From positions 7,087-71,086 of the forward strand of contig CAZGCA010000018.1 of NCBI GenBank assembly GCA_964524145.1: DNA of 64,000 nucleotides. Reading direction: 5' to 3'. Below the pieces are notes generated by a model. The model made no database searches. It was not told the DNA's origin and saw only the letters and a program-made list of their open reading frames with translations. The number at the start of each line of letters is the position of its first letter. Positions within the stretch are counted from its first letter, which is position 1. The DNA comes from an uncultured bacterium (GTDB lineage Bacteria > Hydrogenedentota > CAZGCA01). The position numbers were made by a program, and so were the translations under genes. Shown one piece after another: positions 7,821-48,800 of the stretch.

Positions 7821-8055
7821 TCCCCTCTGTACATGACCGCCCTCTATTCGCTAGAGTTGATTATATTACAGACTATACTGACAGCAAGCCAGAATTGCCC
7901 AGAGAGGTCGGACCTCGATTTACAAATGTGCGTCGTACGGGTTATAATTGCGCTGCTTGGGAACGTTGCTCGCCATATGCGGGCATAGCAACGAGGTGGA
8001 GTTTTCAGCGAGGGTTTGCGCCATGGACCCACGTCGGACGTACAGTCTCACCAAC

Positions 8056-11000: not shown

Positions 11001-14000
11001 CGTTTTCTTTGAAAACACAGGCAGCGGCTCCGGCGGCGGTGTCTACGCGCACTCCACGGTTCGCATCGTGCAGTGTGTGTTCATGGGCAATGACGCGACC
11101 TATGGCGGAGCGGTGAATGTGTCCGGCGGAACAGGTCTTATCGCCCGCAGCGTCTTTGCGGACAATTTGACTCATTACTCGACTGGTTGCGGTGGAGGCT
11201 CGATAAGTTCGAGTGGGACTATCAATATCCAACAGTGCGTCTTTGTCGGGAACGAGACTGAGTACGGTTCTGGCGGCGCCATTTCCGTCTCTGGCAACCT
11301 GTCATTGTGCGATTCGGTTTTCGTTGCCAATCGCGCACCGGGAACGACGAGTTCTGGGTATGGCGGCGCAATCAGGATCACGTCTGACAACAATCGAATA
11401 TGGAACTGCATCTTCACTCAGAACTACGCCCGTACTTCGGGGGCCGTCATCTACTCCTCCTATGTAAATGATTTGATAGAAATCGCCAACTGCACTCTGG
11501 ATAGCAATTTCAACTCGGCCGGGTTCAGCGGCATCGACTGTGCGTACGACCCACATGCTAGCGCTAGTATCCGGAACTCGATCATTTGGGCCTCGGGAGT
11601 ATTAGAGTTCTCTGGCGGCGAAGTGACATATTGCGACGTAGAAGGAGGATACGACGGCGTTGGAAACATCGACTCGGAACCCAGCTTCGACAGCGGACGA
11701 GCGGGCACGGCTCAAACCCTCACCTACGACTCGGATAACCTCTTAACCACACTGTTCGATCCTTTTGCCGATCTTGTCCCTGGCGCGCTGGCTGGAGAAG
11801 TGGTACAAATTGGGGCCGTGAGCCCCGAGTTTTTCGTCGTCCAGGATAACGCAGCAACATCCCTAGTTGTCTGGGGGGACGCCGCACGAAGCGTTCCGAC
11901 AATCTACGTGGTTCTCGAGTATGGTCTGGCCTCCTCCTCGCCCTGCATCGACACAGGAACCGAGCAGGGAGCGCCCACCGTGGATTTTGACGGAAACGTC
12001 AGAACATTGGACGGAGGGGTCGACATCGGGGCTTACGAGTACGGCGCTGCCCCGCCTTCTCCCAATGCGCCGGCTACTCCGAGCAACGTGACGCCGTCGG
12101 AGGGTGAAACCGGGGTTCCCCGCTCGCCGACGCTCCAGGGAACGGCCTTCTCCGATCCCGACCCGGGCAACACACACCTCGCGTCCCATTGGCAAATCAG
12201 AGCGTCTAACAGACCTTCGGATTACTCGGTCCTCGCTTTCGATTCGGGCAAGACGACCACCTTCCTTGAGTCCATCGAGGTCCCACCGGGCAGATTGGTC
12301 TACAACTACTCCTATTATTGGAGGGTGCGCTACCTGGACCATTATGGAACGTGGAGCGAGTGGTCTGCGGAGTCTCAGTTCTTCACCCAGGGCGCTCCCG
12401 GCAATGTGCCGGATCAGCCGACGAACATTTCTCCATCGAACGGCGCGACGGACGTTTCGCTGACTCCGACGCTCACCTCCTCGGCGTTCAGCGATCGGGA
12501 TGCGGGCGACACGCACGAGGCGTCGCGGTGGCAGGTGCGTGAATCATTGAGCTCGTCGGATTATTCGACGACGGTGTTCGATTCGGGAACGGACGCGACG
12601 AACTTGACGTCACTGGCAATTTCGCCCTCGACGCTCGCCGGCAACACATCGTACTCCTGGCGCGTGCGGTATCAGGACTCGGCGGGCGCCTGGAGTGCAT
12701 GGAGCGTGGAGACCGCGTTCACTACGATTGAGCACGATTCCCCGGTGATTACAACCAACAACGGCCAAGATTTCACTACGAGTGAGCCGAATCTCACGCT
12801 CGAGGGCACGTGTGACGCGGCCACGAACGAGATTCGGGTGAACGACTCAACGTCTGGTGTGACGTATACCCCGGGCGCGACGACGTGGTCCTATACGTGC
12901 ATCTTGGTGGAAGGTGCAAACACATTCTCAGTAGTTGCGGTTGATGCCGTGAGCAGTATTTCGTCACCGGCCACCGTTACTATCACACTCGACACGGCGG
13001 CTCTGAATCCGCCGGTGATCACGACGAACGGTGGCAACGACTACGCGACTAATCAGTCGGCGCTGGCACTTGAGGGCACGTGTTCGTCTGACACGGCAGA
13101 GCTCCGTGTGAATGGTTCAACCTCGGGTGTGGACTATGCCCCGGGCGCGACGACATGGTCGTATTCGGTGACCTTGGCAGAGGGAGACAACCACTTCTCG
13201 GTTGTGGCGTATGATGCTGGAGAACACCCCTCAGTTGCAGATATGATCGCTGTGACGTTGGACAAAACGCTGCCGATCATTTCGCTCTTGGGTAATGATG
13301 AAGAGACGATAGGGGTAGGCGAAGAATATGTGGATGCAGGTGCGACAGGATGGGACAACTACGATGGTGACTTGACGGAGAGCATCGTCACGGTTAATCC
13401 AGTGAACACGTCGGAGGCCGGCGACTACATGGTCAGCTACAACGTGAGCGATTCGGCGGGCAACCAAGCGAAGGAGGTGACGCGCCCAGTTCATGTAATC
13501 GAATCGGGCATAACGCCACCGGAAATAGAGCTACAGCCCGACGCACCGACGACCCTCGATGACCTAGTATGCCTTGTGACTGTGCCAAGTACGACTCTTC
13601 CAGGCCGCATGACGTTGTACGAGTATACGTGGACGAACGGCACCGCTACTTTGGTCAGTGGCCCTAAACGAGCCCTGCTCGACGCGCTTGATGCGACACT
13701 GACCATGAAAGGCGACACCTGGACCTGCACGGTACGCTGTCTGGACGGTGTTGGAGAATCTGATCCTGTCGAGGCTCAAACCGTTATCGTTAATTCCCTA
13801 CCGGAACCGCCAGTACTCTCATTCCCGTCGCAAGAAAGTGATCGAAAGAACCTGTATTGCATTGTTGTGGAACCGAGCTATGATGCAGACGGGGACGAGT
13901 GTACTTACGCTTTCGAGTGGTGGTACATCGTGGCGGGAGAAACCACTGCTGTGGAGTTTCGCTCTGACTGGGTGAACTATGACGACGCGTTCACCAGTTG

Positions 14001-16752
14001 GATAGACCGGAGCTTCACTGAGGAGCGTGACAAATGGTATTGCATTGTCACTCCGAATGACGGTACGAGCGATGGAACATCGGCGACAACTGACGAATGC
14101 CAGATCACCGCAATTGGCGACACTCCATCCTCCATAAGCTGTTCGGTTGAACCAGCAAGCATACAACTCGGCCAATCTGTCACCATCTCGGGCATGATTG
14201 AGGCTGTGAACTTCTGGGGAACCTTCGTTTCGTTCAACAGCACTATGCCGTCCGGCGAAGAGCGAGGAAATCATCCTCAGGCGGTTCCGGTTCCGGGCAA
14301 CAGCAATGATTACAGCAAGGTATTCTATCCCCACGCGGCGTCTGAGGACGAGGCACCATGGGAGCTAACAGCATCTTGGATCGGGGACAATGTTTACGCT
14401 GGCGCTGAAAGTGACCCGGTCAGCTTTGAGGTCACAAAAGCCCCAACAAGCCTGTCTTTGGAGCTGTCTGCGTCATCTGTACCGATGAATTTCGCGAGGT
14501 TGACGGCAACGGCAAAGCTGACCGCGCCGTTACCGGACGAATTGTCCAGCTTGCTGACGGGGATAGAAGTGAATCTGTATGTCAAGCTGCCAGACGGTAG
14601 CGCGCCGAATGGTATGCCACTCGTCGCCAAGACCAACGCGCAAGGTGTTGCAACGTTTACACCATTGCACTTTACGGATGCGGGCGTTACGTTCAGTACT
14701 GCTGGGACGTGGAAATGTGTGGTCGAGTTTGAAGAGGACAGGAACTTCTTGCAGAGCACTTCGCTTGGGGAGTCAGGTTGGTTGACGGTCAAAGACCGGG
14801 CGGGCTACGCCGTCCTTGTGCTTGGTAGATTGGACGAAGACGGAGAAGGACTGCCAGAACATGCGAAGACACTGGATTTCGTGTACAGTGCATTCCGTGA
14901 ACGTGGATTTGCTGACGAGGACATCTACTACCTGCGCGGAGGACTTGAACAACCTTCCCCGTACATCGTTGTTGACGATACCGAGCCGACTGAGGAGGAT
15001 GTGCAACGGGCCATCGAGACATGGGCCGCCGATAAAATGAACGCGACATCCGCTCCGTTGTATGTCGTGTTGGTGGACCACGGCAAACGTGGGTCGTTTT
15101 TCGTTTACTCCGGCAGCTATGGCGAGTCCCGCGAGATTACCTCTGCGGAACTAGGGCGCAGTTTCGATAGGCTACAGGACAACCTGGACGGCGAGGCACA
15201 GGACGAGAAGATCGTGTTAGTCTATGGCGCTTGCCACTCAGGGAGTTTCATCCCGACGGTCTCCGGCGAGCACCGCGTGATCATCACCAGCACGACAGAG
15301 GACGAGGTGTCGCACCGCGGCGTAATCGACCCGGACGACCTGATACGGGACGGCGAGGTATTCGTCACAGAATTCTTCCGGAACGCACGGGAAGGCAAGA
15401 ATCTCAAAAGATCGTTCGAAATAGCCACTGCCCAGACGTGGGAGTATACAGCAACTGACACGAGCGCCGGCAGATCGAGCTGGGGCCAACATCCTCTGTT
15501 GGACGACAACGGCGATGGTCTAGGCACGGGTGAATGGCTTTCGACTCAGCCAGGGGAAGACGGTAGTCTTGCCCATGAGCTGGTACTTGGGTATGGGTTT
15601 AACGTGGGCGATTCCACTGGCTGGCTGACCGTAACGCCTACTGTCAGCCTTGGCCCTGATGACCCAGTTCCTCTCCTGGAAGCTAAAGTTACACAGAGTC
15701 CGGCCATAGGCCTCACGGCATGGATCGAGGTGAAAGCACCGTCCTATTGGGGTGCGTCGATCGTCGACGAGGACAATCCAGACTCGCAACATGTCGTAGA
15801 GATGGTGTCGTTGCCTTCGGACAATACTGATCCAGTGGATGGCATCTTCAGGTGGTCGGACTTTGGTGACACGTTCGATATGTCGGGCACGTACAAGGTC
15901 TTTTACTATGTCAAAGATGGCGCTACCGACGAAACCAGCACTTACATGCTAACGACAATCTATCGCCTCAAAGAGGAAACTAACCCTCCAGAGTCAGTGG
16001 CGCTTGTGTATCCAGATGACGGTGCGGAAGTGTATAGCACGACATTCTTTGCGTGGCAGGAAGCGCCCAATCCGGACGGTGACGCGTTCAGCTATCGGCT
16101 CGAGTTGGCGGAAGATCAGGATTTCACAGCCGGGTTGATCGTAAAAGAAGGTATCCTCGGGACGGTGGTACATCCTCGCGAGATCGACGATATCGTGGAT
16201 GGGCAGACCTACTACTGGCGGGTCGTATCTGTGGACGAGTACGGTGCAGCTTCTCAAGATGACTCCGTTCGCACGTTTTCGGTCAACAATGCCAACCCTG
16301 CGGTGCCGGGAGCAGTGATAGGCGTCATCACGGATGCCGACACAGGCGCTCCAATTGAGGGTGCAATCATCACGGTTACCCCCGGTCCAGCAACCTGCAC
16401 TTCCTCAAGTCAAGGAATCTATCTCGTCGTCGGCCTCGATGGGGGAAAGCAGTACACTGTCCGGGTCTTTATACCGGAATCCCAAATTGAGAGCGATGCA
16501 CAGGTGCAGATACCTGCTGGCGGTCTGGTAGAAGCCAATTTCCAGTTGGAAGTTGCGGCAGCGGCGGGCGACCCTGATGTGAATGGTGACAACGGCGTCA
16601 ACGCCGTCGACGTCCAGCTTGTGATAAACGAGGCGCTTGGCATCAATACCGGCTACAACTGCAACATTGACGGTGCCGGGAACGTGAACGCCGTTGACGT
16701 CCAGCTTGTGATCAACGCGGCCCTCGGCATCGATATCTCCGGATCGTTCTAG
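8056..16752 (+). CDS. Giant secreted multidomain protein: 2x right-handed beta-helix/choice-of-anchor-Q, 4x FnIII-like, Ig-like, DUF5011, peptidase C13 (clan CD), FnIII, CarboxypepD_reg, C-terminal dockerin
   Basis: Signal peptide MRRLGLLFSILILAGASFA; GGAI beta-helix repeats and SPCVDTG..DIGAYEY twice; LYVVLVDHG and VYGACHSGSF dyad; DVNGDNGVNAVDVQLVINEALG..NAVDVQLVINAALG. Confidence 0.88.
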   Translation: MRRLGLLFSILILAGASFAEPNNVIYVDIDASGGANDGSSWENAFLDIQRGINAARTAGGLEVWVAEGTYKQAIVMMSGVHLYGGFSGGEALRSERDTIQHRTILDAETNAHAFSGVRDARLDGLVISRVDPYDKTSAAEQGGGLACAFSSFAIVDCEFSNLSGGGAAAIDMTDSSSLVVVDCKFLDNYGYSGAVTVAANCSLTVRDSVFFKNTAYYGYGEGGGAIKTSGSLDLLCCVFLENDGEAGGAIHVKNGTALIKGSEFWRNLAHFSTGAEGGAVFVDRGDATVADSVFVENEAGGYWDGGGALVCQYSNSFNYGNVSLHGCAFFGNGSGGGLAGAVYIGSADNVVENCLFASNESAALYISKATEIVNCTFDGNTLGSPGGSGLSLNESPSTVRNCIIWDNAMTGGSAANISYCDIEGGYPGIGHQDANPSFASGPAGTAQTITYDSDAFLTEITDSLASLTPSAMAGKVVRVGSLDQHYYVIKNNTTTSISVWGDATEGGSVSAPQVYEVLDFHLSASSPCVDTGTDSGAPSLDLDGNTRPWGAATDIGAYEYASSPPANVAPDTPSNNSPPDGATNASLTPIVSCSGFSDPDAGDTHVGSHWQIRETTNPGDYSVNTFDSVETHVDIESIRVPPGLLSYATSYAWRVRHRDNHAAWSQWSSETLFTVAAESQVTAVPAVPRNAEPADGRTVSTLTPILQSSAYNDPTAATTHLASQWQVREVTSPPDYSAPVYDSGVSFGDLTSLLIPGGLLQYNTAYAWRVRYMASNGKWGPWSRETIFVVEPGSGLAVIFVDADATNGANNGSSWQNAYIDLTLAVTAASGPGAEVWVAEGTYLEFITLTDGVHLYGGFAGGETLRSQRDWDLHPTIIDGSTANDGSPAPHVVVCGGANATLDGFTITGAAGGSPAGGGVYGSIASLRVSNCLLTENSASTGSGVYSADTSSVEILNCRFLRNLGSSAVYSDTNSVLTVSNSVFFENTGSGSGGGVYAHSTVRIVQCVFMGNDATYGGAVNVSGGTGLIARSVFADNLTHYSTGCGGGSISSSGTINIQQCVFVGNETEYGSGGAISVSGNLSLCDSVFVANRAPGTTSSGYGGAIRITSDNNRIWNCIFTQNYARTSGAVIYSSYVNDLIEIANCTLDSNFNSAGFSGIDCAYDPHASASIRNSIIWASGVLEFSGGEVTYCDVEGGYDGVGNIDSEPSFDSGRAGTAQTLTYDSDNLLTTLFDPFADLVPGALAGEVVQIGAVSPEFFVVQDNAATSLVVWGDAARSVPTIYVVLEYGLASSSPCIDTGTEQGAPTVDFDGNVRTLDGGVDIGAYEYGAAPPSPNAPATPSNVTPSEGETGVPRSPTLQGTAFSDPDPGNTHLASHWQIRASNRPSDYSVLAFDSGKTTTFLESIEVPPGRLVYNYSYYWRVRYLDHYGTWSEWSAESQFFTQGAPGNVPDQPTNISPSNGATDVSLTPTLTSSAFSDRDAGDTHEASRWQVRESLSSSDYSTTVFDSGTDATNLTSLAISPSTLAGNTSYSWRVRYQDSAGAWSAWSVETAFTTIEHDSPVITTNNGQDFTTSEPNLTLEGTCDAATNEIRVNDSTSGVTYTPGATTWSYTCILVEGANTFSVVAVDAVSSISSPATVTITLDTAALNPPVITTNGGNDYATNQSALALEGTCSSDTAELRVNGSTSGVDYAPGATTWSYSVTLAEGDNHFSVVAYDAGEHPSVADMIAVTLDKTLPIISLLGNDEETIGVGEEYVDAGATGWDNYDGDLTESIVTVNPVNTSEAGDYMVSYNVSDSAGNQAKEVTRPVHVIESGITPPEIELQPDAPTTLDDLVCLVTVPSTTLPGRMTLYEYTWTNGTATLVSGPKRALLDALDATLTMKGDTWTCTVRCLDGVGESDPVEAQTVIVNSLPEPPVLSFPSQESDRKNLYCIVVEPSYDADGDECTYAFEWWYIVAGETTAVEFRSDWVNYDDAFTSWIDRSFTEERDKWYCIVTPNDGTSDGTSATTDECQITAIGDTPSSISCSVEPASIQLGQSVTISGMIEAVNFWGTFVSFNSTMPSGEERGNHPQAVPVPGNSNDYSKVFYPHAASEDEAPWELTASWIGDNVYAGAESDPVSFEVTKAPTSLSLELSASSVPMNFARLTATAKLTAPLPDELSSLLTGIEVNLYVKLPDGSAPNGMPLVAKTNAQGVATFTPLHFTDAGVTFSTAGTWKCVVEFEEDRNFLQSTSLGESGWLTVKDRAGYAVLVLGRLDEDGEGLPEHAKTLDFVYSAFRERGFADEDIYYLRGGLEQPSPYIVVDDTEPTEEDVQRAIETWAADKMNATSAPLYVVLVDHGKRGSFFVYSGSYGESREITSAELGRSFDRLQDNLDGEAQDEKIVLVYGACHSGSFIPTVSGEHRVIITSTTEDEVSHRGVIDPDDLIRDGEVFVTEFFRNAREGKNLKRSFEIATAQTWEYTATDTSAGRSSWGQHPLLDDNGDGLGTGEWLSTQPGEDGSLAHELVLGYGFNVGDSTGWLTVTPTVSLGPDDPVPLLEAKVTQSPAIGLTAWIEVKAPSYWGASIVDEDNPDSQHVVEMVSLPSDNTDPVDGIFRWSDFGDTFDMSGTYKVFYYVKDGATDETSTYMLTTIYRLKEETNPPESVALVYPDDGAEVYSTTFFAWQEAPNPDGDAFSYRLELAEDQDFTAGLIVKEGILGTVVHPREIDDIVDGQTYYWRVVSVDEYGAASQDDSVRTFSVNNANPAVPGAVIGVITDADTGAPIEGAIITVTPGPATCTSSSQGIYLVVGLDGGKQYTVRVFIPESQIESDAQVQIPAGGLVEANFQLEVAAAAGDPDVNGDNGVNAVDVQLVINEALGINTGYNCNIDGAGNVNAVDVQLVINAALGIDISGSF

Positions 16753-17040: not shown

Positions 17041-17372
17041 AAAGGTCGTGGTGGGAGTTCTTCCCGCTGAGAAGACGTCTTCTTAACGATCGGCGGACTC
17101 GCATAATGGGGCATCTTGGGTCGAGTTGGAGCTATGGAACGGTCCAATTCGAGCCTGCTCGGGAATGTCTCCGAGAGGCTTTCCACAACGAATGAGAGAT
17201 GCTGTCTCTGGCCAAATGTGAAACATAGATACATGGCGTATACGGTGGCGTGGTCAAGGAGAGGCAGCATCCCCAGGACGGACGTGGTCGTTGATCAAGA
17301 CCAGTGCTCGTGTTATTATGCTTCCACTGGATAATGGACAACGTCAAACGTCGCCAAGGGAAGGACCAATTC

Positions 17373-20300
17373 ATGAAGCGCACAGTTCCTCTCATTGTAG
17401 TAACTTGTTGTCTAACCGTCGTGATCGTCTCTGCGGGCAGGTTTGCCGCACAGGTAACGGGCGACGTGAATGGGGACGGTTCTGTCAACGCACTTGACGT
17501 CCAGCTCACTATCAACGGGGCGTTGGGGATCGATATCGGCGGCCGTGACGCCGACATCAATGACGACGGGGCAGTGAACGCGCTTGACGTGCAGTTGTGC
17601 ATCAACGCGGCGCTGGGGATTACGAACGGTGGTTTACCTCCCGACCCGAAAGACGTGGCTCCCGACGTAGACCCGACAGTCCCGACGGATCTTGCCGATG
17701 CGACCGAATTCATCTACACGGGAGATGACCCCATCCAGACCGATGTGTCTCCGGGTGCTATCGAACCGACACGTGTCGTGGTAGTGCGCGGCAGGGTGGT
17801 GACGGTCGAAGGTAACCCTCTGCCTGGAGTACAGATTACTATCCTGAATCACCCGGAATACGGTCAGACGCTGACACGCGCGGACGGCATGTTTGACATG
17901 GCGGTGAACGGCGATGTGTTGGTCACGGTCAACTACTGGAAAGAAGATTATCTGAGTGCTCAACGTCAGGTGGACGTACCGGTGCAGGACTATGTATGGT
18001 TACCTGATGTGGTGCTTACGGTACTCGATCCCGAAGTTACCGTGATCGACTTCTCGGAGCCCGTGCAGGTAGCACGCGGCAGCGCGGTCGAGGACGAGGA
18101 CGGGTCTCGTCGGGCGACCCTGCTCGTCCCTCAAGGGGCAGGAGCGAAGATGAAGCTTGCGACGGGAAAGCGAAAAGAGCTCGACACAATGAGCGTGCGG
18201 GCGACTGAATACACCGTTGGAGAGAGCGGTCCTGCAGCTATGCCTGCATTTCTGCCGCCCGAGAGCGGTTACACGTACTGTGTGGAATACAGCGTGGATG
18301 AAGCGATTGATGCCGGCGCCGTCACGGTGGAGTTCGACGAAGCCGTCATCCACTATGTCGAGAATTTCCTCGATTTCCCGGTCGGAGGCAAAGTGCCGAC
18401 CGGCTATTACGACCGGGAGAAGGCAGTCTGGGTAGCGTCTCAGAACGGTCAAGTTGTTCAAATCGTGAGCATCACGGGCGAGATGGCCGACCTGGACATC
18501 GACGGCGACGGCGCGCCCGACAACGCTACAGACCTTGCCGATCTAGGTATCACCGATGAGGAACGACGACAGCTGGCATCGATCTACCAGCCCGGCCAGA
18601 GCGTGTGGCGTGTGCCGCTCACCCACTTCACCCCTTGGGACTGCAACTGGCCGTACGGACCTCCGGCTGATGCTAACGCGCCCGATCCGCTTCCCCCGGA
18701 CGATCAACCGGAAGAAGACGACTGTGAAGAATCGTCCGGCGGCGATGACGGCGGAGGTGGCGACGGCGGCGGACGCGGCGGGAGCCGAGGTTCGGGTTTC
18801 CGAGGTAGCAGCCAGGAACTGATCCACCGGATCCCGATTGTCGGTACTCCGTTTGCACTGCATTACCAGAGTAGCCGAGTTCCCGGCAACAGGAAAGCTT
18901 ATTCGACCGACATCCCGCTCAGCGGCGAGACTGTTCCCGGCAGCCTCAAGGGCATCGAGCTGGAAGTTGGCATTGCGGGACAGCGATTCACCGATAGCTT
19001 TGGTGCTGAAGCCGGGCAGAACAGTAGTTACGAGTGGGACGGTAAAGATGGCTACGGCCGTGATTTGAAAGGATCGGGGCCGGCCGACATTGGCATAGGC
19101 TACGTCTACGACGGGGTTTACATGGAGCCGGCAGAGTTCGAGGACTCTTTCGGTCGATTAGGTGAAGAGACCATCGTCGGCCGCGGGACACGAGACGAAA
19201 TCGTTCTATGGACCCACAGCCAGAGGATGCTCGGGATATTGACGGTACCGGGACCGGAAGCGCTTGGCGGATGGACCCTGAACGTCCACCACACCTATGA
19301 CACCGAGGCGCAGGTGCTGTACCGAGGGGATGGGAAAATACGAAAGGTCGAGGGGGAGGATGCCTCGGCCATAACCATTTTCGCCGGTGATCCCACGCAG
19401 GGATACTCTTCGGGCGAAGCCGGTGACGGCGGGCCGGCCACCGAGGCGCTTTTTAAGTTGGCCTACGCCGTAGAACTGGGACCGGACGGCAGCCTCTACA
19501 TTGCCGATCCGGGGTCGTTTGTCAACAGGATTCGCCGTGTGGGCCCGGACGGAATCATCACCACGGTAGCGGGTAAGGGCGGACGAGACGGCTTCAGCGG
19601 CGACGGGGGTCCCGCTACCGAGGCGGAATTCGCTCTCCCAAGGGCAATTGCCGTGGCGGACGACGGCAGCTTCTACATCGCGGACAGTGGGAATCAGAGG
19701 ATACGTCGTGTGGGACCGGATGGGATAGTCACCACCGTGGCGGGTACCGGCGAAATGGGATTCAGCGGCGACGGCGGCCCGGCAACCGAAGCGCAACTTA
19801 TGTATCCTACCGATGTTGAAATCGGGCCCGACGGCCTTCTGTATATCGCCGATCTTCTCCGCGTGCGTCGGGTGAGTTCCGACGGGATAATCACCACGGT
19901 GGTTGGTAACGGCACGGATGACTATGCAGGAGACGGTTCGCTTGCGACCGAAACGGGTATGTTGGGCTTCGGCATCGAGGTAGGACCCGACGGGAGCATA
20001 TGGATTGCCAATACTCCCGAACATTGTGTATCCCGTGTGAATCCCGACGGTATCATCAACAGAGTGGCGGGTGCAGGTGACGGACTCGACGGCTTCAGTG
20101 GCGACGGAGGCCCTGCAACTTCTGCCAAGCTGAAGAATCCGTGGGACATCTCGCTTGGGCCGGACGGCAGCCTGTATATCGCCGACGCCGACAATCAGCG
20201 TATCCGGCGCGTGAATCTGATGGGGATCATTAGGACGGTGGCGGGTAACGGCGAAGAGATATTCCTCCCGGACGATTTCTTGCGCGGTATGGGCGGCCCG

Positions 20301-23300
20301 GCGACCGAGGCACCCCTCTATTTTCCCATAGACGTTGTGGTGGGCCCGGACGGCACTTTTTACATCGCAGACTTCTCGGTCGTCCGCAGGGTGGCGCGCG
20401 CGCGTCAACAGGCCGTGATCAGCGAGGATGGTACCGAAGTGTACGAGTTCGACATCCATGGTCGTCATCTGCGGACTCTGAACGCGCTGACGTGCACACC
20501 CATTTACGCATTCGACTATGATGATGACGGTCTCTTGGCTCAGATCGAAGATAGAGATGGTCGTGTGACCACCGTCCAACGGGACGGAAACGGCGGTCCG
20601 ACAGCCATTGTGGCCCCTCTGGGGCAGCGTACCACGTTCACCCTGGATGCACAGGGCTGGCTTGCCACCGTCACCGATCCTGCTGGCCAAACTTACGAGA
20701 TCACGTACGACGGCACCGGCCTCATGACCGGGCTGACCGATCCCGCGGGCAATGAGTATGGCCATGAGTACGACGAGCAAGGTCTTCTCGTGGGTATCGA
20801 TGCGCCGGGTGGCGGCGGCAAGACGCTCGCGCGTACAGCAACGGAGAACGGCTACGAGGTGACGGTGACGACTGCCATAGGCCGTACGACCACATACGGA
20901 GTCGAGCATCTCCCGACCGGCGAGAAGCACATGGTGACCACCTTTGGCTGTTGCGGACAGGCCGAGGCGCTCATCGACGCGGACGGCAACATCGAGATAA
21001 CCTACGCCGATGGAACGGTGGTGACCGAGATGCTGGGGCCGGATCCGCGATGGGGCATGCAGGCCCCAATGGCGACTGAATGGACTATGACCACGCCGGA
21101 CGGCGTGCAGTATGTGCATAACGCCGAACGAACGGCCACGATGTCGGACTCTACCGGTCCGTTGTGCGGGGCGGGTTTGGTGGAGACGGTCGTTGTCAAC
21201 GGCCATGCTTACAGTCGTACGTATGACGCGGACCAGAGACTCAGGGCGACCGAATCGCCTCTCGGCCGGCGTCAGTTCACGTGGCTGGACGAACAGGGAC
21301 ACGTGGCAAAACTCCAGATCGGGGGCCTGGAACCGGTTGAATATGCCTACGACAGCAACGGGCGGCTTCAGACAGTAACAAATGCTCCCGGCCCCGATGC
21401 CCGGGTCTACCAGCTGAGCTACGATGCGAACGGATACCTTGAAAGTGTTACAGACCCGATGCAACGTACGGTCAGCTTCGGGTACGACTTCGCGGGTCGC
21501 GTGACTCGCCAGGTCAGCCCGGACGGCCGCGAGACACTGTACACCTACGACGAGAACGGGAATGTGACTTCGGTGACCCCGCCGGGCCGTCCATCGCACC
21601 AGTATGCGTACACGGCGACAGACCAGCAGGAGGACTACGTTCCTCCCGCCGTCGGTGCGGGCGCCACCCTGACCCATTATGACTACAACGTGGACGGTCA
21701 GATCGAGCTGGTCACGCGCCCGGACGGACAGACAGTCGACTTCGAATACAACGCGGCCGGACTCCTGGATCATATCGTCATGCCTCGTGGACAGGTCGAT
21801 TTCGCCTACGGGCCGGCCACGGGACAGGTCACCTCGGTCACGACACCGGAGGGAGACATCATATCGTTCGGCTGGGACGGCATTCTGCTCAAAGAAACAA
21901 GCTGGTCGGGAGACGTTGTGGGAAGTGTGGCCCGTACCTATAACAACGACTTGCGAGTTGCCGCTCTCAGCATAGATGATACGCACAGCATAGCGTTCGG
22001 CTATGATGACGACGGCCTGCTGGTCGGAGCAGGAGACATAACCCTGACACGCGACGCGCAGAACGGCTTTGTTGTAAGCACGACGCTCGACCAGATCGCC
22101 ACCATGCGAGGATACGACGGCTTCGGCCAGCTTACAGGCTATCGGGCCGAGTTCAGCGGCGCTCCGATATTCGAGACGGCCTACGTTCGGGACGCCATCA
22201 ACCGGATCACACAGAAGACCGAGACTATCGACGGTGTAACCACGGTTTACAGCTACGTTTATGATCAGGCTGGTCGGCTGACGGAGACCCTTCGGGACGG
22301 CGTGACCGCATCCATATACACGTACGACGATAACGGCAATCGCGCAACCCACACCGACGAGGATGCCGTGGTGACGACGGGTAGCTACGACAACCAGGAC
22401 CGCATGGTTCAGTACGGAAACACCACGTATACCTACACCGATAATGGCGAGCTGTTGACGAAGACCGAGACGGGCCAAGTCACGCACTACGACTACGACG
22501 TGATGGGTAACCTCCAAGCCGTCACCCTACCCGACGGGACACAGATTGACTACGTCATCGACGGACGTAATCGGAGGGTCGGCAAATCGGTTAACGGTTC
22601 ATTGGTTCAGGGCTTCCTTTATGTGGACAACCTCAACCCCGTAGCCGAGTTCGACGGCGCCAACAACGTCGTGAGCCTGTTCGTGTATGCCGGTCGTCCC
22701 AATGTGCCAGACTATATCGTCTCGAGAAAGGCGGATGGTGTTACGTGGGTCGCGTACCGGCTTGTCTGCGACCACCTGGGCAGTCCCCGGCTGGCTGTAG
22801 ATGCTGCAACCGGCCAGGTTGCGCAGCGTCTGGACTACGATGAATTCGGGAACGTCACTGACGACACCAATCCGGGGTTCCAACCATTTGGCTTTGCGGG
22901 AGGTCTCTACGACCGGCACACAGGACTTACCCGGTTTGGAGCCAGAGACTATGACGCCGCGACGGGACGGTGGACGGCAAAAGACCCGATCGGTTTCTCA
23001 GGAGGGGATACGAACCATTACGGCTACGTCTTGGGAGACCCGATTAACAGTATGGATAGCAGCGGCCGGCAAGCATCCGGGCCAGTCTGCAAAATCGAAG
23101 TTACGGTCGATCCCCCCGACCCGACAACAGAAGAAGGTTACGAGTACAAAGGAACGAGGGTTACCGTGGATGGAGAAGTGGTGTCGGGCAAGGATGTCCA
23201 TTTCCCGAGTGAAGGAGCCGCAAAAGTCCACTCGGTGACAATAATAGACAATCATCAGTTGGCGCACGACATCAAGATTACCCACATATACGGCAAGCCG

Positions 23301-23330
23301 GAGATCGTAATCGATTTCACAAGGAGATGA
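17373..23330 (+). CDS. Teneurin-like NHL/YD-repeat (Rhs) protein with N-terminal dockerin and short C-terminal payload
   Basis: Signal peptide; dockerin GDVNGDGSVNALDVQL..; carboxypeptidase-regulatory-like domain; FN-plug-like region; repeated GPDG..YIAD..RIRRV..GII.TVAG NHL blades; YD repeats; Rhs core PFGFAGGLYD..RFGARDYD...GRWTAKDPIG..YGYVLGDPINSMDSSG. Confidence 0.9.
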   Translation: MKRTVPLIVVTCCLTVVIVSAGRFAAQVTGDVNGDGSVNALDVQLTINGALGIDIGGRDADINDDGAVNALDVQLCINAALGITNGGLPPDPKDVAPDVDPTVPTDLADATEFIYTGDDPIQTDVSPGAIEPTRVVVVRGRVVTVEGNPLPGVQITILNHPEYGQTLTRADGMFDMAVNGDVLVTVNYWKEDYLSAQRQVDVPVQDYVWLPDVVLTVLDPEVTVIDFSEPVQVARGSAVEDEDGSRRATLLVPQGAGAKMKLATGKRKELDTMSVRATEYTVGESGPAAMPAFLPPESGYTYCVEYSVDEAIDAGAVTVEFDEAVIHYVENFLDFPVGGKVPTGYYDREKAVWVASQNGQVVQIVSITGEMADLDIDGDGAPDNATDLADLGITDEERRQLASIYQPGQSVWRVPLTHFTPWDCNWPYGPPADANAPDPLPPDDQPEEDDCEESSGGDDGGGGDGGGRGGSRGSGFRGSSQELIHRIPIVGTPFALHYQSSRVPGNRKAYSTDIPLSGETVPGSLKGIELEVGIAGQRFTDSFGAEAGQNSSYEWDGKDGYGRDLKGSGPADIGIGYVYDGVYMEPAEFEDSFGRLGEETIVGRGTRDEIVLWTHSQRMLGILTVPGPEALGGWTLNVHHTYDTEAQVLYRGDGKIRKVEGEDASAITIFAGDPTQGYSSGEAGDGGPATEALFKLAYAVELGPDGSLYIADPGSFVNRIRRVGPDGIITTVAGKGGRDGFSGDGGPATEAEFALPRAIAVADDGSFYIADSGNQRIRRVGPDGIVTTVAGTGEMGFSGDGGPATEAQLMYPTDVEIGPDGLLYIADLLRVRRVSSDGIITTVVGNGTDDYAGDGSLATETGMLGFGIEVGPDGSIWIANTPEHCVSRVNPDGIINRVAGAGDGLDGFSGDGGPATSAKLKNPWDISLGPDGSLYIADADNQRIRRVNLMGIIRTVAGNGEEIFLPDDFLRGMGGPATEAPLYFPIDVVVGPDGTFYIADFSVVRRVARARQQAVISEDGTEVYEFDIHGRHLRTLNALTCTPIYAFDYDDDGLLAQIEDRDGRVTTVQRDGNGGPTAIVAPLGQRTTFTLDAQGWLATVTDPAGQTYEITYDGTGLMTGLTDPAGNEYGHEYDEQGLLVGIDAPGGGGKTLARTATENGYEVTVTTAIGRTTTYGVEHLPTGEKHMVTTFGCCGQAEALIDADGNIEITYADGTVVTEMLGPDPRWGMQAPMATEWTMTTPDGVQYVHNAERTATMSDSTGPLCGAGLVETVVVNGHAYSRTYDADQRLRATESPLGRRQFTWLDEQGHVAKLQIGGLEPVEYAYDSNGRLQTVTNAPGPDARVYQLSYDANGYLESVTDPMQRTVSFGYDFAGRVTRQVSPDGRETLYTYDENGNVTSVTPPGRPSHQYAYTATDQQEDYVPPAVGAGATLTHYDYNVDGQIELVTRPDGQTVDFEYNAAGLLDHIVMPRGQVDFAYGPATGQVTSVTTPEGDIISFGWDGILLKETSWSGDVVGSVARTYNNDLRVAALSIDDTHSIAFGYDDDGLLVGAGDITLTRDAQNGFVVSTTLDQIATMRGYDGFGQLTGYRAEFSGAPIFETAYVRDAINRITQKTETIDGVTTVYSYVYDQAGRLTETLRDGVTASIYTYDDNGNRATHTDEDAVVTTGSYDNQDRMVQYGNTTYTYTDNGELLTKTETGQVTHYDYDVMGNLQAVTLPDGTQIDYVIDGRNRRVGKSVNGSLVQGFLYVDNLNPVAEFDGANNVVSLFVYAGRPNVPDYIVSRKADGVTWVAYRLVCDHLGSPRLAVDAATGQVAQRLDYDEFGNVTDDTNPGFQPFGFAGGLYDRHTGLTRFGARDYDAATGRWTAKDPIGFSGGDTNHYGYVLGDPINSMDSSGRQASGPVCKIEVTVDPPDPTTEEGYEYKGTRVTVDGEVVSGKDVHFPSEGAAKVHSVTIIDNHQLAHDIKITHIYGKPEIVIDFTRR

Positions 23331-23620
23331 AACCCGCCGCGGGGTCTATCGCGACCGTGGCCGGGGGACGGAGAGTCGTCCTTCCATAGCCAATTGGCCA
23401 TCGTCAGTCGTGCGGTCGGCTGACCTCGATCACAGTTGGCACAAGTGGGGTTCTGGGAAGAGGAGAGGCAGCGCTTCGGGGCCGGAACCTATCAGCTACT
23501 CCCCTTGAGGTGCCATCCTGCAACGGGATGGTCGGTACAGTGTTCATCGAGGAACGTGCCGCTTTCTTTTTCAATGGACGTGGGCCGCCTCAAAGAGGGT
23601 CCATCACAACAGAATCGGCG

Positions 23621-23649
23621 TTGACAGAATCGGCACGGGCGACTACAAT
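23621..23649 (+). promoter_or_regulatory. sigma70 promoter of the DUF1080 gene
   Basis: TTGACA-N17-TACAAT. Confidence 0.7.
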
Positions 23650-23726
23650 GCCAGGAGATGAGCCTGCGGCGGTCGCAGGCGGGTCTATGTGGGAAACCTC
23701 GGATAGCATCACAGGAGAAACGAAAC

Positions 23727-24416
23727 ATGAAGCGCATGCTCAGCCTCTTGATCGCTTTCGGCTTCGTGTCGTTGGGAAGTATGGCCGAGGGTTCGGAGAC
23801 GAAACCCGCCGCGGGCAGTGAGTCCAAGCCCACCGAGGCGCAGGACAGCGAGACCATTGCCCTGTTCAACGGGAAGAGTTTCGACGGCTGGCAAATGCAT
23901 CTAAAGGATTCGGATGTCGATCCGAAGGACGTATGGGAGATCCGGGACGGCGCGATATGGTGCAAAGGGGAGCCCTTCGGCTATATGCGCACGAAGAAAG
24001 AGTACAGCGATTTCAAACTCGTCGTTGAATGGCGATGGCCTGAGAAGCCCAGCAACAGCGGTGTCTTGCTGCGGATTAGTGGCGAAGACAAAGTCTGGCC
24101 ACTCTGCATGGAAGCGCAGCTTATGCACAGACGTGCCGGCGATTTCGTCGGAATGGGCTGCTCATTCAATGAGAACACGAGTCCCGAGGGCGAGTTGTTC
24201 CGCTACGCGCCGCGCCAACACCGCACCAACGAAAAGAAACCCGGCGCCTGGAACACGTACGAGATCACCTGCAAAGGCGATACCGTCGAGTTGACCGTCA
24301 ACGGCCAACACCAGAACAAGGCGACCGGTGTGAGCGTTCGCCGGGGGTACATCGGTCTCCAGAGCGAAGGCTCCCCTATCATGTTTAGGAACGTCAAGCT
24401 GACGCCTCTCCGCTGA
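23727..24416 (+). CDS. Secreted DUF1080 (3-keto-disaccharide hydrolase family) protein
   Basis: Signal peptide; LFNGKSFDGW, YSDFKLVVEWRW, NSGV, GAWNTYEI, GYIGLQSEG..FRNVKL. Confidence 0.92.
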   Translation: MKRMLSLLIAFGFVSLGSMAEGSETKPAAGSESKPTEAQDSETIALFNGKSFDGWQMHLKDSDVDPKDVWEIRDGAIWCKGEPFGYMRTKKEYSDFKLVVEWRWPEKPSNSGVLLRISGEDKVWPLCMEAQLMHRRAGDFVGMGCSFNENTSPEGELFRYAPRQHRTNEKKPGAWNTYEITCKGDTVELTVNGQHQNKATGVSVRRGYIGLQSEGSPIMFRNVKLTPLR

Positions 24417-45831: not shown

Positions 45832-48800
45832 CTAGCTTACGATGCCCAACGCGGCATTGATGACAAGCTGGACGTCGATGGCGTTGATCTGGCCGTCGCC
45901 GTTGACGTCGCAGTCGAAACCGGTGGAATTGCCCAGGGCCTCGTTGATGTCCAGTTGCACGTCTATCGCGTTGACTGCTCCATCACCATTGACGTCGCTG
46001 GGGTCGGTCTCGATCGGTATCAGCGCGAAGTTCGCTTCCACCACGCTCCCTGCGGACACGTCGGCGTCTTCCTCGTCAGCCTCGTATCCTGCAGCGGAGA
46101 CTTCGACTGTGTGTGAGCCTTCCGGGACGTTGACAACCGCGTAATTGCCCCGAGGTGATGAGGTTCCTGTTCCCGGGCCGGGCGTCACCGTAAGGTCTGC
46201 GCCGCCAATAGGAATTCCTGTCTCCGCATCGGTTACCAGGCCTGTCATGGCGCCGGGCAGTGCAGGGTTGCGGAAATCGGTCGTGAACGTGCGAACGTCG
46301 TTGTTTTCAGGAGCGGCCCCGAACTCGTCCACGGGAATGACGCGCCAGTAGTAGGTTTCCCCATCGATGATGCCGTCCGCCTCGCTTACCACCGCCACGG
46401 TGCCTGTAAGTCCGCCTCTGACTATCAGCCCGGTTGTGAACTCGCGGTCTGTTGCAAGCTCGAGTCGATAGGTGACCGTGTGGCCGTCCGGGTCGGTCGT
46501 TTCCTCCCAGACAAAGAAGGTCGTGCTCGCTGCCGGCATGTCGTCGTCAGGGTAGACCAGCGTTACCGGCTCTGGCGGCTGGTTGTCGGAGGCCGCGCGG
46601 TAGACTGTTGTCACCATGTGCGTACTGGTATCGCCGGTAGTGCCGTCCTCGACGTAATAGAAGACCTTGTAAGTACCGGGAGCATCGAAGGTCGTGCCGA
46701 ACTCCGACCAGCGGAACTCACCGGTTTCCAGATCGGAGATATCCGGCTCGTAATCGAACCTTGGCATCTCGACAACCTCTTGAGAATCGGGGTTGGACGC
46801 GTCGATAACTGTGGAACCGGCGTAGCCCGGTGTCTTGACTTCCATCCACGCAAAATGACCCGTCGCAGGCCTCTGGTCGGCCAGCGCGAACAGCTCACCA
46901 AGAGGTTCTCCGTGTCCTGCCACGACCGTCTGCGTCGCGGTAAGCCACCCCACAGGATCTGCCGCATTTACACCGTACCCCAGCCTCAGCTCGTGCGCAT
47001 GTCCGCCATCCCATCTCGGGTTGTAGGACAACGACCCGGTCGTGCCCAGACCGTCGCCGTTGTCATCGAGCAGCGGGTGCTGCGGATAGTCGGAGAATCC
47101 CGCGTTGCTTCTCGTTGCGGTGTATTCACCGGTCTTCTCGCATGCCCGCTCGAACGATTCCTTGAGCGTCTTCCCTGTGCGGGCGTTGCGAAAGAGTTCC
47201 GTGACGAACACCTCGCCGTCGCGTATCCCGTCGTTCGGATCTGCAACCCCACGATGCGATACCTCGTCCGCGGAACAGCTCGTGATGATGGTGCGCTGGT
47301 CGCCCGACAACGCCGGAATGAAGCTGCCCGAATGGCACCCGCCGTAGATGAACACGATCGGGCCCGACCCGAGCGTGTCGAAGTACCCGGCAAGCTCCCC
47401 AGGCTCGATAGAGCGGGTCTCGTCGTAGGAACCGGAATAGACGTAGAAGGCGTTCTCGCTGCCGTGGTCAACGAAGACGACGTAGAGCGGCGCGGGAGAC
47501 CTGTTCATCTTAGCCAGCGCCCACTCTTCTATGGCATACCTTACATCGTCTTTGCTCGGCCTCGTGTCGGCAACGAAGATGTCCGGTGCAGGTTGTGCCA
47601 ACCCTTCGCGCAGGTAGTAGATGTCCTCGTGCGCGAACCCGCGCTGCCGCAACGAGCGATAGACGTAGTCCGTCGTCTTGGCGTGCTCGGCATGCCCTTC
47701 CCCCGCGTCGTCGAGCTTGCCGAGCGCGATAACGGCGTAGCCCGCGCGGTCTTTGATCGTCAGCCGTACCGACTCCGGCTTATCGTACCCGACCGAGGTG
47801 GTTGGTCTGAAGTTGTCGTCGCCTTCGAAGTCAGCCTGGAACTGCCATGTGCCCGGCTCATCGAAGATGATGCCCGCATCGGCGAACGCCTTGGGACTGA
47901 ACACGGCGACGCCGTCGGTGTTTGTCGTTGCCTCAACGGGTCCCGCGGCGGTATCGTCGGGCTTCTTCATCCATAGCCTCACCGTCTGCTCTGACAACAG
48001 GCCTGCAAGGACGTCCGGTAAGGGAGCGGTGAGCGATGCCGTCGCCTCGAGGTCGTTGTGGAAGAGAGGTGCCGACGATGCCGAGATCTCGACCAATAGC
48101 GTCGTAGGTGCCCTTGCCACCCCAAACGTCACCGGCTCGCTCGTTGCTGCTCTGTACGTGTCATCGCCCGGCCAGGAGGCTGTCACCTCCCAAGGGTCTC
48201 TCTCTTCCGACGCTTCTATAGGGTAGAACGTGCGGCTGTAACTGTTGACGAAGTGGGGAACGACCACTCCCTCGGGGAAATTCGGAAGCTCGATGCCCGA
48301 AGGCAGCCGACTGCTGAACCCGGCGAACGTCCCTGTCCCCTCCATCTCCGCGATGGTTCCTGATACCGTTATCAGCTTGCCAAGCTGCACTATCGGCGGC
48401 TCAACAACACAGGTGATGGTCGACGAAGCCTGGCCCATCGCAATTATGACGCACTCCTCTGAAACCGCCTCGGTTCCGTCAGCCTCGCCGTCGCTGGGAG
48501 TGACGGCGCAATACCACTCGTCGCCCAGATCCGTGAAATACGCATCGACCATCGTGTAGCGCTCATGATCGTCAGTAAACTCGAAGAGGCTGAAGCCTGT
48601 TTCGCCCGCTCGTTTCACATACCAGTCATACCTATAGGTGACAGCGTCGCCATCGTCGTCGGGACCGCGCCTCATAACGAGGCACGCAAGATCGGTCTCG
48701 GTGTTTTGGAATGTCCGGAAAGACAACCCGGGCGTTCGAGGCGGCGTGTTGACAATCGTGGTCGAGTCCGACGCCGGAGAGGAGTACGCGACGCCGTCCC

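Follow-up and report, generated by a model that had tools for sequence, protein, structure and literature searches.

The 64-kb stretch of contig CAZGCA010000018.1 analysed here, which comes from an uncultured bacterium and is called the window throughout, carries on its forward strand (17373..23330) a gene whose product is, by homology, a clear member of the bacterial teneurin-like protein (TLP) family and has a predicted type I dockerin at its N-terminus. This protein is referred to below as the query (Q in alignments), and its relatives by P numbers. The TLP family was characterised in 2026, with cryo-electron microscopy structures of BiTLP from Bacillus inaquosorum (9ifo, 9pt5; Raoelijaona et al., Nat Commun, PMC13018210). 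Its features are an invariant superfold of FN-plug, NHL and YD-shell, a TIP domain and two autoproteolytic sites, together with a polymorphic C-terminal domain (CTD) of about 15 kDa that lies inside the shell and, in "almost all" cases, an immunity gene directly downstream; variable N-terminal "adhesion" modules are thought to govern surface display (PMC13018210). The family and its swappable N-terminal display modules were known already; what is new here is a dockerin as a probable TLP display module.

As a whole, the observations are best explained by a Sec-exported TLP that is tethered by its dockerin to a shared surface partner, cleaves itself twice and keeps its payload attached through a disulfide, a reading in which we place moderate confidence. 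TLP structures date from 2026, and both the display of these proteins and the exit of the payload from its shell are current questions. A dockerin tag would add a third mode of display to the lipoprotein anchors of diderm TLPs and the SLH and cell-wall-binding modules of monoderm ones, and the query would extend the family to bacteria of the Planctomycetes-Verrucomicrobia-Chlamydiae (PVC) type and connect the capsules of polymorphic toxins with non-cellulosomal cohesin-dockerin systems, which are poorly understood. Because dockerin-cohesin pairs are tractable, being Ca-dependent, of high affinity and composed of separable modules, they could also provide a handle on TLP surface display. What raises the query above an ordinary family member is a mobile address cassette that two divergent capsules have in common, the cohesin-dockerin link, and a cysteine rule that turns a surprise from the single BiTLP structure into a testable general rule on the released toxic unit.

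The teneurin-like capsule and its predicted cleavage sites

The open frame runs unbroken from 17304 to 23330 (+) and, from the ATG at 17373 (MKRTVPLIVV...), encodes 1985 amino acids and a stop. From residue 95 onward the query aligns with BiTLP (9ifo/9pt5) at E=0 and 1441 bits, and it matches metazoan teneurins at E 1e-82 to 1e-99. A conserved linker (17628..17765; LPPDP..VAP.VD.TVPT..ATEFIYTG..PIQT) follows the dockerin, and homology to all TLPs starts at about aa 88-95. Ahead of the FN-plug lie a transthyretin-like (TTR) domain (aa 132-215, 17766..18017; Pfam TTR_TEN1-4, E 3.6e-25) and a TIP-like region (aa 216-450, 18018..18722), the latter recognised by alignment to the BiTLP stretch between TTR and FN-plug; residues Q95-830 are colinear with BiTLP 360-1083 and cover it, and aa 391-450 are covered also by the alignment to BiTLP 656-829. 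FN-plug, NHL and YD-shell then follow in the order characteristic of the family. The FN-plug (about aa 474-640, 18792..19292, with an approximate C-terminal boundary) is placed by the BiTLP alignment and by matches to teneurin FN-plugs; Pfam gives no FN-plug in the query, the region aligning instead, over aa 391-580, to BiTLP 656-829 at E 1.3e-42. The NHL beta-propeller spans about aa 680-1005 (19410..20387; Pfam TEN_NHL, E 3.4e-40, and NHL, E 1.3e-22) and the YD/Rhs-repeat shell about aa 1006-1853 (20388..22931; Pfam TEN_YD-shell and ten RHS_repeat matches, NCBIfam YD_repeat_2x). The Rhs-associated core with its aspartyl-protease motif (22932..23069; BiTLP alignment and NCBIfam Rhs_assc_core) leads into a CTD, the presumed payload, of 86 aa and 9.4 kDa with an isoelectric point of 5.4 and a beta-rich sequence (23070..23327, delimited by BiTLP homology). 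All of these features lie on the plus strand. An antisense open reading frame (ORF) of 1103 aa (19206-22517, -) falls wholly inside the TLP gene; it arises mechanically from GC-rich repeat-coding DNA and was given no weight as a gene, the plus-strand homology being overwhelming.

Both autoproteolytic sites known from BiTLP appear to be preserved. In the Rhs core, R1858 (22944-22946) aligns with the essential Arg R2103 of BiTLP, and D1871 (22983-22985) and D1895 (23055-23057), two Asp residues 24 positions apart, align with the catalytic D2116 and D2140. R1899 corresponds to L2144, the last shell residue, and the C-terminal cut is predicted after it. At the N-terminal site, G473|S474 (18789..18794) is the predicted equivalent of BiTLP G723|S724 in a conserved register set by Q481, L483, G491 and P493, and C451 (18723..18725) upstream aligns with the FN-plug loop Cys C719. 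This site has Ser or Cys at P1' in all 96 of 96 TLPs and Gly at P1 in 86 of the 96. Between the Cys and the site the query carries an insertion of 18-19 aa, delimited here as a lineage-specific, Gly/Asp-rich stretch of 19 aa (SSGGDDGGGGDGGGRGGSR; aa 454-472, 18732..18788), which is found elsewhere only in the 93%-identical P0001; at 46 aa, the cleavage loop is the longest among 91 TLPs, for which the median is 29. The protease Arg and two Asp and the cut-site residues are invariant in six dockerin-bearing TLPs.

Most of this layout had been given in a preliminary description made from the letters of the window, and it has stood up well. The two-repeat dockerin is confirmed by Pfam (39.8 bits), by complete Ca loops and by dockerins in the PDB, and a putative signal peptide can be read in the sequence; the FN-plug/NHL/YD/Rhs map agrees with Pfam, with the BiTLP match at E=0 and with the FN-plug alignment at E 1.3e-42. 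The junction, YGYVLGDPINSMDSSG, lies where it had been placed (aa 1883-1898, nt 23019-23066), with 87 residues after G1898. Homology to BiTLP puts the cut one residue past G1898, after R1899, which gives a CTD of 86 aa instead of 87.

In its build, the query resembles BiTLP in the order of TTR, TIP, FN-plug, NHL and YD-shell behind a variable N-terminal module, in both autoproteolytic sites, in the essential Arg and the FN-plug Cys, and in its small CTD (86 aa against 93 aa in BiTLP). It departs from the TLPs described so far in that its N-terminal module is a type I dockerin and its probable host a PVC bacterium, PVC not being among the six phyla reported (PMC13018210). Unlike the described Gram-negative TLPs, which are signal peptidase II (SPII) lipoproteins, it has a signal of signal peptidase I (SPI) type that lacks a lipobox. 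It further differs from BiTLP and other described TLPs by the 19-aa loop insertion, by DSSG-R in place of DPxG-L and by having no immunity gene immediately downstream, which is an accessory and not a defining trait of the family. At 9.4 kDa its CTD is within the limit of about 15 kDa usual for these domains, and it is polymorphic in the same sense, the CTDs of relatives being unrelated in sequence and having a median length of 119.5 aa. The family itself comprised 2101 proteins at E<=1e-10 in our searches, and 560 loci or more were counted in species-representative genomes, which come from many phyla, among them Planctomycetota, Verrucomicrobiota and Lentisphaerae; the best of these reference-genome matches is 50% identical to the query.

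Two other groups of YD-shell proteins have to be set apart. With the Rhs effectors of type VI secretion systems (T6SS) and the BC subunits of ABC toxins (RhsA 7q97, Tse5 8cp6, RhsP 8h8a, TccC), the query has in common a shell of YD repeats, the aspartyl protease of the Rhs core and a polymorphic domain that is encapsulated at the C-terminal end. Unlike them, it has no PAAR, VgrG or TcA-binding element, is predicted to be exported in a Sec-dependent way, and shows the FN-plug/NHL superfold in place of an N-terminal plug/PAAR arrangement. Nor does it combine a recognisable toxin domain with an adjacent immunity gene, as an Rhs/YD polymorphic toxin would. Metazoan teneurins (Ten2 6fb3, Ten3 6fay, Ten4 7bam) have the same TTR/FN-plug/NHL/YD-shell superfold, whereas the query has no intracellular domain, and Pfam finds in it none of their transmembrane helix and EGF N-terminus, ABD or Tox-GHH. 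In teneurins the protease motif has been lost and the C-terminus exits the shell (PMC13018210); in the query the motif appears intact, and the prediction is a C-terminus that stays enclosed.

The dockerin as a probable display module

The leader that begins at ATG 17373, MKRTVPLIVVTCCLTVVIVSAGRFAA, is of typical Sec type. Read by eye, this putative signal peptide (aa 1-26, 17373..17450) has an n-region MKR, a hydrophobic core, probable cleavage after VSA21 or FAA26 and no lipobox, and it is present also in P0001, P0028 and P0121. The dockerin follows directly (aa 27-85, 17451..17627), with two F-hand Ca-binding repeats. Pfam Dockerin_1 matches aa 30-78 (nt 17460-17606) at E 5e-10, its score of 39.8 bits lying above the cut-off of 22.9, a dockerin hidden Markov model (HMM) built here matches at E 1e-22, and the segment finds the solved type I dockerins of CelS (1daq/2mte, E ~2e-5) and Xyn10B (1ohz/2ccl). 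The two tandem F-hand loops with their helices, in a module of the usual 60-70 aa or so, are those of type I dockerins (PF00404): both 12-residue Ca-binding loops, DVNGDGSVNALD and DINDDGAVNALD, are complete, and the two repeats are identical to each other at 18 of 23 positions. As in the cellulosomal dockerins of C. thermocellum CelS and Xyn10B, there are two 22-residue F-hand repeats with Ca ligands D1, N3, D5 and D12, a short linker and near symmetry between the repeats. In contrast to those dockerins, the module stands in a non-cellulosomal context, N-terminally and straight after the signal peptide, and positions 10/11, the usual cohesin contacts, are Ala-Leu instead of Ser-Thr.

The N-terminal modules listed for TLPs so far are BIG, SLH, FN3, CARDB, CW-binding, CarboxypepD, PKD, Ig-like, WD40, CADG and Dicty_CTDC (PMC13018210). 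Dockerin is absent from this list, which makes the query a type that is undescribed yet conceptually expected; an earlier survey had recorded that other polymorphic toxins carry dockerin and cohesin modules (PMC13483458). The preliminary description had proposed a search for the combination of dockerin, NHL and RHS. In general form that architecture is known (9ifo/9pt5), but its dockerin variant proved rare. Dockerin_1 is present in 5 of the 120 best TLP protein matches (P0001, P0028, P0036, P0052 and P0118), each time after the signal peptide and before the LPPDP...TEFIYTG entry to TTR, and our dockerin HMM found the module in none of the 80 best reference-genome TLP loci. A search with the N-terminus of the query added six metagenomic fragments, P0122-P0126 with Dockerin_1 and TTR_TEN, and P0121 with a dockerin and the conserved linker, after which the sequence ends. 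On shell sequence the dockerin-bearing TLPs are polyphyletic, not being one another's nearest relatives, and four dockerin subtypes or more can be told apart among them, at the same position between signal peptide and LPPDP linker. For these two reasons, the rare fusion is best read as the outcome of several separate origins or swaps.

The fusion would be an artefact if the assembly were chimeric, or if a dockerin ORF and a TLP ORF had been joined through a wrong start codon. We give this practically no credence, because the gene recurs across independent assemblies: the same or a near-identical gene is found on independent contigs and in runs of several independent marine-sediment sequencing studies, and the same dockerin-TLP junction occurs in at least 10 distinct clusters from independent lineages. 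In the window, moreover, one uninterrupted frame covers both parts.

The query dockerin is 59-64% identical to three other dockerins of the window, versus 35-44% to the dockerins of other TLPs, and because it is closer to the former, its sequence places it in the host's own dockerin pool. Four dockerin proteins are encoded in the 64 kb, namely the TLP and the products of the genes at 7948, 35558 and 45832. The dockerin at the C-terminus of a 2934-aa surface protein (16576..16731, +) is 64% identical to that of the query and was recognised by our HMM at E 7e-10, its Pfam score of 22.6 bits lying just below the cut-off. The dockerin of the 35558-37351 protein (36392..36556, +; 59% identical) and the C-terminal one of a 1715-aa protein (45841..45999, -; 64% identical) score 48.9 and 44.9 bits in Pfam, respectively, and were found by our HMM as well. 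The 2934-aa protein (7948-16752, +; beta-helix/Ig) and the 1715-aa protein (45832-50979, -; PPC/peptidase-C13-like) are giant secreted proteins. Both end in CarboxypepD_reg followed by the dockerin, and a peptidase C13/C14-like region was noted.

A second line of evidence on the role of the module comes from P0028. Its dockerin is 95% identical to that of the query, but the shells of the two proteins are 48% identical, a level that does not exceed the family background (about 50%), and their CTDs are unrelated. Over the signal peptide and dockerin (aa 1-80; window 17373-17627 compared with 10001-10260 of the P0028 locus L001), blocks of 40 aa are 82-95% identical, and third-codon-position identity is 0.76-0.87, against roughly 0.3-0.5 over most of the remaining gene. 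Because identity in this cassette, at third positions too, far exceeds that of the rest of the gene, the comparison points to a recent exchange of the cassette between the two genes and not to purifying selection alone. Contigs with P0028 share a Joint Genome Institute (JGI) sample with a query-type contig, and their flanks have the GC content and tetranucleotide signature of the window (r 0.95-0.97, equal to within-window values). On account of the shared sample and composition, P0028 is probably a paralogue, encoded by this genome or by a sister of it, with the same address on another capsule and another payload. These observations support the dockerin as a functional address tag.

What the tag would bind is less clear. 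The preliminary description had proposed a cohesin in the 35558-37351 protein as a partner to be tested, and this claim is not established. That protein (+, ATG 35558) consists of a signal peptide and a beta domain some 140 aa long, followed by four TSP3 repeats, the dockerin and a NosD-like beta-helix, and it is the beta domain (35672..36094, +) that may be cohesin-like. The clue comes from the small protein P0189, which combines a signal peptide, a Pfam-positive cohesin and a dockerin 61% identical to that of the query. Its cohesin and the 35558 domain can be aligned colinearly by BLASTP (27% identity in 128 aa, at E 0.059), and by eye the two share a pattern. A single-sequence AlphaFold2 (AF2) model of the domain is all-beta (pLDDT 44), and its top Foldseek match among 350,000 chains is the non-cellulosomal cohesin 2xdh (E 8.7e-3, TM 0.30/0.37). 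A cohesin in the 35558 protein is therefore weakly suggested, a lead and not a result.

P0189 is encoded in an operon (L085 1924-6449; GCA_964520685.1, contig CAZFOG010000084.1) that also encodes a small dockerin protein and two small cohesin proteins, the latter with C-terminal hydrophobic anchors and Arg-rich tails at the end. This operon, which recurs in several runs, looks like a non-cellulosomal cohesin-dockerin system in compact form. Assemblies of that kind have been proposed for Planctomycetes under the name "planctosome" (Andrei et al., ISME J 2019, PMC6461901). The giant secreted proteins of the window, with dockerins, TSP3 repeats and peptidase-like domains, resemble that proposal, and the 35558 protein, with its signal peptide, possible cohesin, TSP3 repeats and dockerin, would resemble a planctosome adaptor. 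The differences are that the planctosome is a bioinformatic hypothesis on peptidases in which no YD-shell or toxin cargo was proposed, and that the cohesin of the window is a candidate only.

The N-terminal repeat could instead be a generic Ca-binding anchor or sorting tag that engages no cohesin and recognises an envelope glycan, an S-layer or outer-membrane component, or serves in export or retention, in which case the TLP would still be tethered to the surface. We regard this as possible if rather unlikely. In its favour, no cohesin is detectable in a 64-kb window with four dockerin proteins, two of these four dockerins sit like sorting domains at the extreme C-terminus of giant secreted proteins, and non-cellulosomal dockerins with no known partner are widespread. 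The cohesin negative, however, covers only 64 kb of the genome, and the module itself looks like a true cohesin-binding dockerin, with both Ca loops, the helix pattern and a nearly perfect internal symmetry of the sort that usually goes with dual-mode cohesin binding. In P0189, moreover, which is encoded within a cohesin operon, the Pfam-positive cohesin is fused to a dockerin of like flavour. We continue to favour a cohesin-type partner.

The payload and its cysteine

The disulfide between C719 and C2216 was reported for BiTLP alone, and as a surprise (PMC13018210). In the alignment, its positions are matched in the query by C451 and by C1906 (23088-23090, +), the single Cys of the CTD. Cysteines were counted over Q and P0001-P0120. 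The number in the CTD is odd (1, 3, 5, 7 or 9) for 102 of 108 TLPs and zero for none of the 108, whereas random placement gave at most 73 odd CTDs of 108 in 20,000 simulations. Compared with the protein bodies, Cys is five times as frequent in the CTDs. Of 91 TLPs, 87 have exactly one Cys within the 25 residues that precede the N-terminal cut, and the number is odd in both the FN-plug loop and the CTD in 75 of 81. The odd parity of the CTD and the single Cys of the loop suggest that a disulfide between the N-terminal fragment and the CTD is a feature of the whole family.

The query payload is, as far as its sequence tells, a rare small beta-rich domain. An exhaustive phmmer search found three relatives among 1.84 billion representatives, all of them TLP/Rhs C-termini: P0213 (a 70%-identical fragment), P0218 (35% identical, the only other full-length TLP) and P0223, a fragment that starts at the Rhs junction. 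P0223 was considered as a standalone homologue of the CTD and rejected, since it begins VDPSGL and is a gene fragment; weak matches in large proteins were set aside as beta-strand noise from Ig-like Big_1/PKD repeats. Five sequences of the CTD family have E, N, D, T-H and a terminal R in common as invariant residues, among them E48, N61, D67 and H72 in the CTD numbering of their alignment. When the whole protein was scanned, no Pfam or NCBIfam family was reported within aa 1900-1985. Many other TLP CTDs (P0036, P0039, P0052, P0089, P0115) begin after the junction with a transmembrane-like stretch, for example KIVPVIIGIIAVGAAAYLAY, which recalls the membrane-active CTD of BiTLP; the query CTD has no such segment.

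Downstream of the gene, 396 nt (23331..23726) separate it from the next start, ATG 23727, and this gap contains no credible immunity ORF. The gene that starts at 23727 encodes a secreted DUF1080/3-keto-disaccharide hydrolase with its own signal peptide. It is preceded at 23621-23649 by a near-consensus sigma-70-type promoter (TTGACA-17-TACAAT, 11/12), which indicates that it would be transcribed independently of the TLP. In L084, the only syntenic relative, the downstream intergenic region is 100% identical and hence carries no comparative signal. Convergent genes follow P0218 and P0028, and no immunity ORF lies beside P0218. As a crude baseline, a tightly coupled, co-oriented ORF was found in 38 of 59 reference TLP loci and none in the other 21, and for this reason the absence of an immunity gene is notable but not exceptional. 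Either the payload is harmless to its producer or immunity is encoded elsewhere; with no immunity gene adjacent, we consider the payload probably not harmful to the producer.

The same absence could mean that the query is no toxin at all. Its role could be adhesion at the surface or a "social" one, with the CTD serving as structural plug or signalling peptide and the dockerin integrating the protein into a surface array, and TLPs have indeed been linked to social behaviour (PMC13018210). No immunity gene lies beside the query, its probable paralogue P0028 or P0218, and the CTD, at 9.4 kDa and beta-rich, has weak similarity only to Ig-like repeats and matches no toxin family. Even so, we judge this explanation unlikely. 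The autoproteolytic machinery for payload release appears fully conserved, the invariant polar residues of the CTD (E, N, D, H, R) suggest an activity, and the CTDs of TLPs that have been assayed were toxic, by differing mechanisms (PMC13018210). About a third of the reference loci (21/59) likewise have no coupled ORF, and the missing immunity gene is weak evidence.

Proposed mechanism and genomic setting

Homology indicates a closed capsule with two intact self-cleavage sites and a conserved Cys pair. In the mechanism that we favour, FN-plug, NHL propeller and YD-shell would close this capsule around the C-terminal 86 residues. After Sec export, the N-terminal dockerin would tether the TLP in a Ca-dependent way to a surface partner, taking the role that SLH, cell-wall-binding or lipoprotein anchors have in other TLPs. 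The other giant surface proteins of the organism that bear dockerins would use the same partner, which would be a module of cohesin type, possibly the 35558 N-terminal domain, in a non-cellulosomal assembly resembling the planctosome. Self-cleavage at G473|S474 and after R1899 would then free the shell of about 1430 aa as a detachable container, while a C451-C1906 disulfide would keep the fragment of dockerin, TTR and TIP (about aa 27-473) covalently tied to the payload. That the dockerin is N-terminal in the query and C-terminal in the giant proteins may be due to the burial of the TLP C-terminus in the shell.

The preliminary description had gone further and inferred a delivery route through recruitment to a cell-surface scaffold. 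Recruitment to the surface by the N-terminus fits the display modules of TLPs (PMC13018210), and a dockerin route is undescribed for TLP or Rhs proteins, but "delivery" over-reads evidence that concerns tethering and display.

Several points weigh against the mechanism. First, its candidate partner lacks the usual marks of a cohesin. The 35558 domain has no match to Pfam at E<=10, PF00963 included, no sequence match in the PDB and no homologue among 5.8 billion proteins; hhalign gives it a probability of 3% against real cohesins, and its fold match is weak and rests on a low-confidence model. Pfam detected no cohesin in the 26 window proteins scanned, NCBIfam no cohesin family in four further window proteins scanned with NCBIfam only, and a phmmer search with the P0189 cohesin matched nothing in the six-frame translation of the window. 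Dockerin-like modules are also reportedly common in genomes with no known cohesin partner (Peer et al. 2009). Second, the second motif of the protease is DSSG, with Arg at P1, in place of DPxG-L; DSxG occurs in 7 of 108 relatives and a P1 Arg in 12 of 108, and DSSG-R thus lies within family variation. Third, an AF2 model of the CTD from a five-sequence alignment reached a pLDDT of 49 and was unusable. Finally, a Sec-exported protein of 200 kDa would still have to cross the outer membrane of a diderm, and the gene was found in no RNA sequencing run.

The disulfide also allows the dockerin to be read in the opposite direction, as the counterpart of a receptor-binding domain that recognises cohesin-like modules or ligands of target cells and hands the disulfide-linked N-terminal fragment with its payload to the recipient. 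If the disulfide is family-wide, the dockerin fragment would indeed stay on the payload after release, and one cassette is used with two different payloads. Against this, the dockerin is most like the organism's other dockerins, which are carried by proteins with no toxin features and argue for a shared partner on the cell itself, and there is no precedent for a dockerin as a receptor-binding domain. We hold such a role to be very improbable and retain tethering to the producer's own surface.

A more specific form of that tethering would have a planctosome-like scaffold recruit toxin capsules through the mobile signal-peptide and dockerin cassette and hold the disulfide-linked payload while the YD shell is shed. 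This is a speculative extension to which we attach little confidence. If true, it would amount to a surface-armed, redox-releasable toxin display, undescribed for any Rhs/YD system, in anaerobic marine-sediment PVC bacteria, the capsules standing beside giant peptidase and beta-helix proteins.

The host, an uncultured bacterium from marine sediment, is probably a member of the PVC superphylum, judging by its gene content. Markers at the PVC level in the window are an H-X9-DG-CTERM/DUF1559 pseudopilin, DUF1080 and a sulfatase, and sulfatases and a fucosidase lie beside P0028. Genes for a 2-oxoacid:ferredoxin oxidoreductase in the window point to an anaerobe. Between the TLP and 35558, a run of co-oriented genes (25681-35526, +) encodes large secreted proteins with InlB B-repeat, BACON and PKD domains. 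Further downstream, an RpoD homologue of 742 aa (40146-42374, -) has a long N-terminal extension, region 1.1 beginning only at about aa 169.

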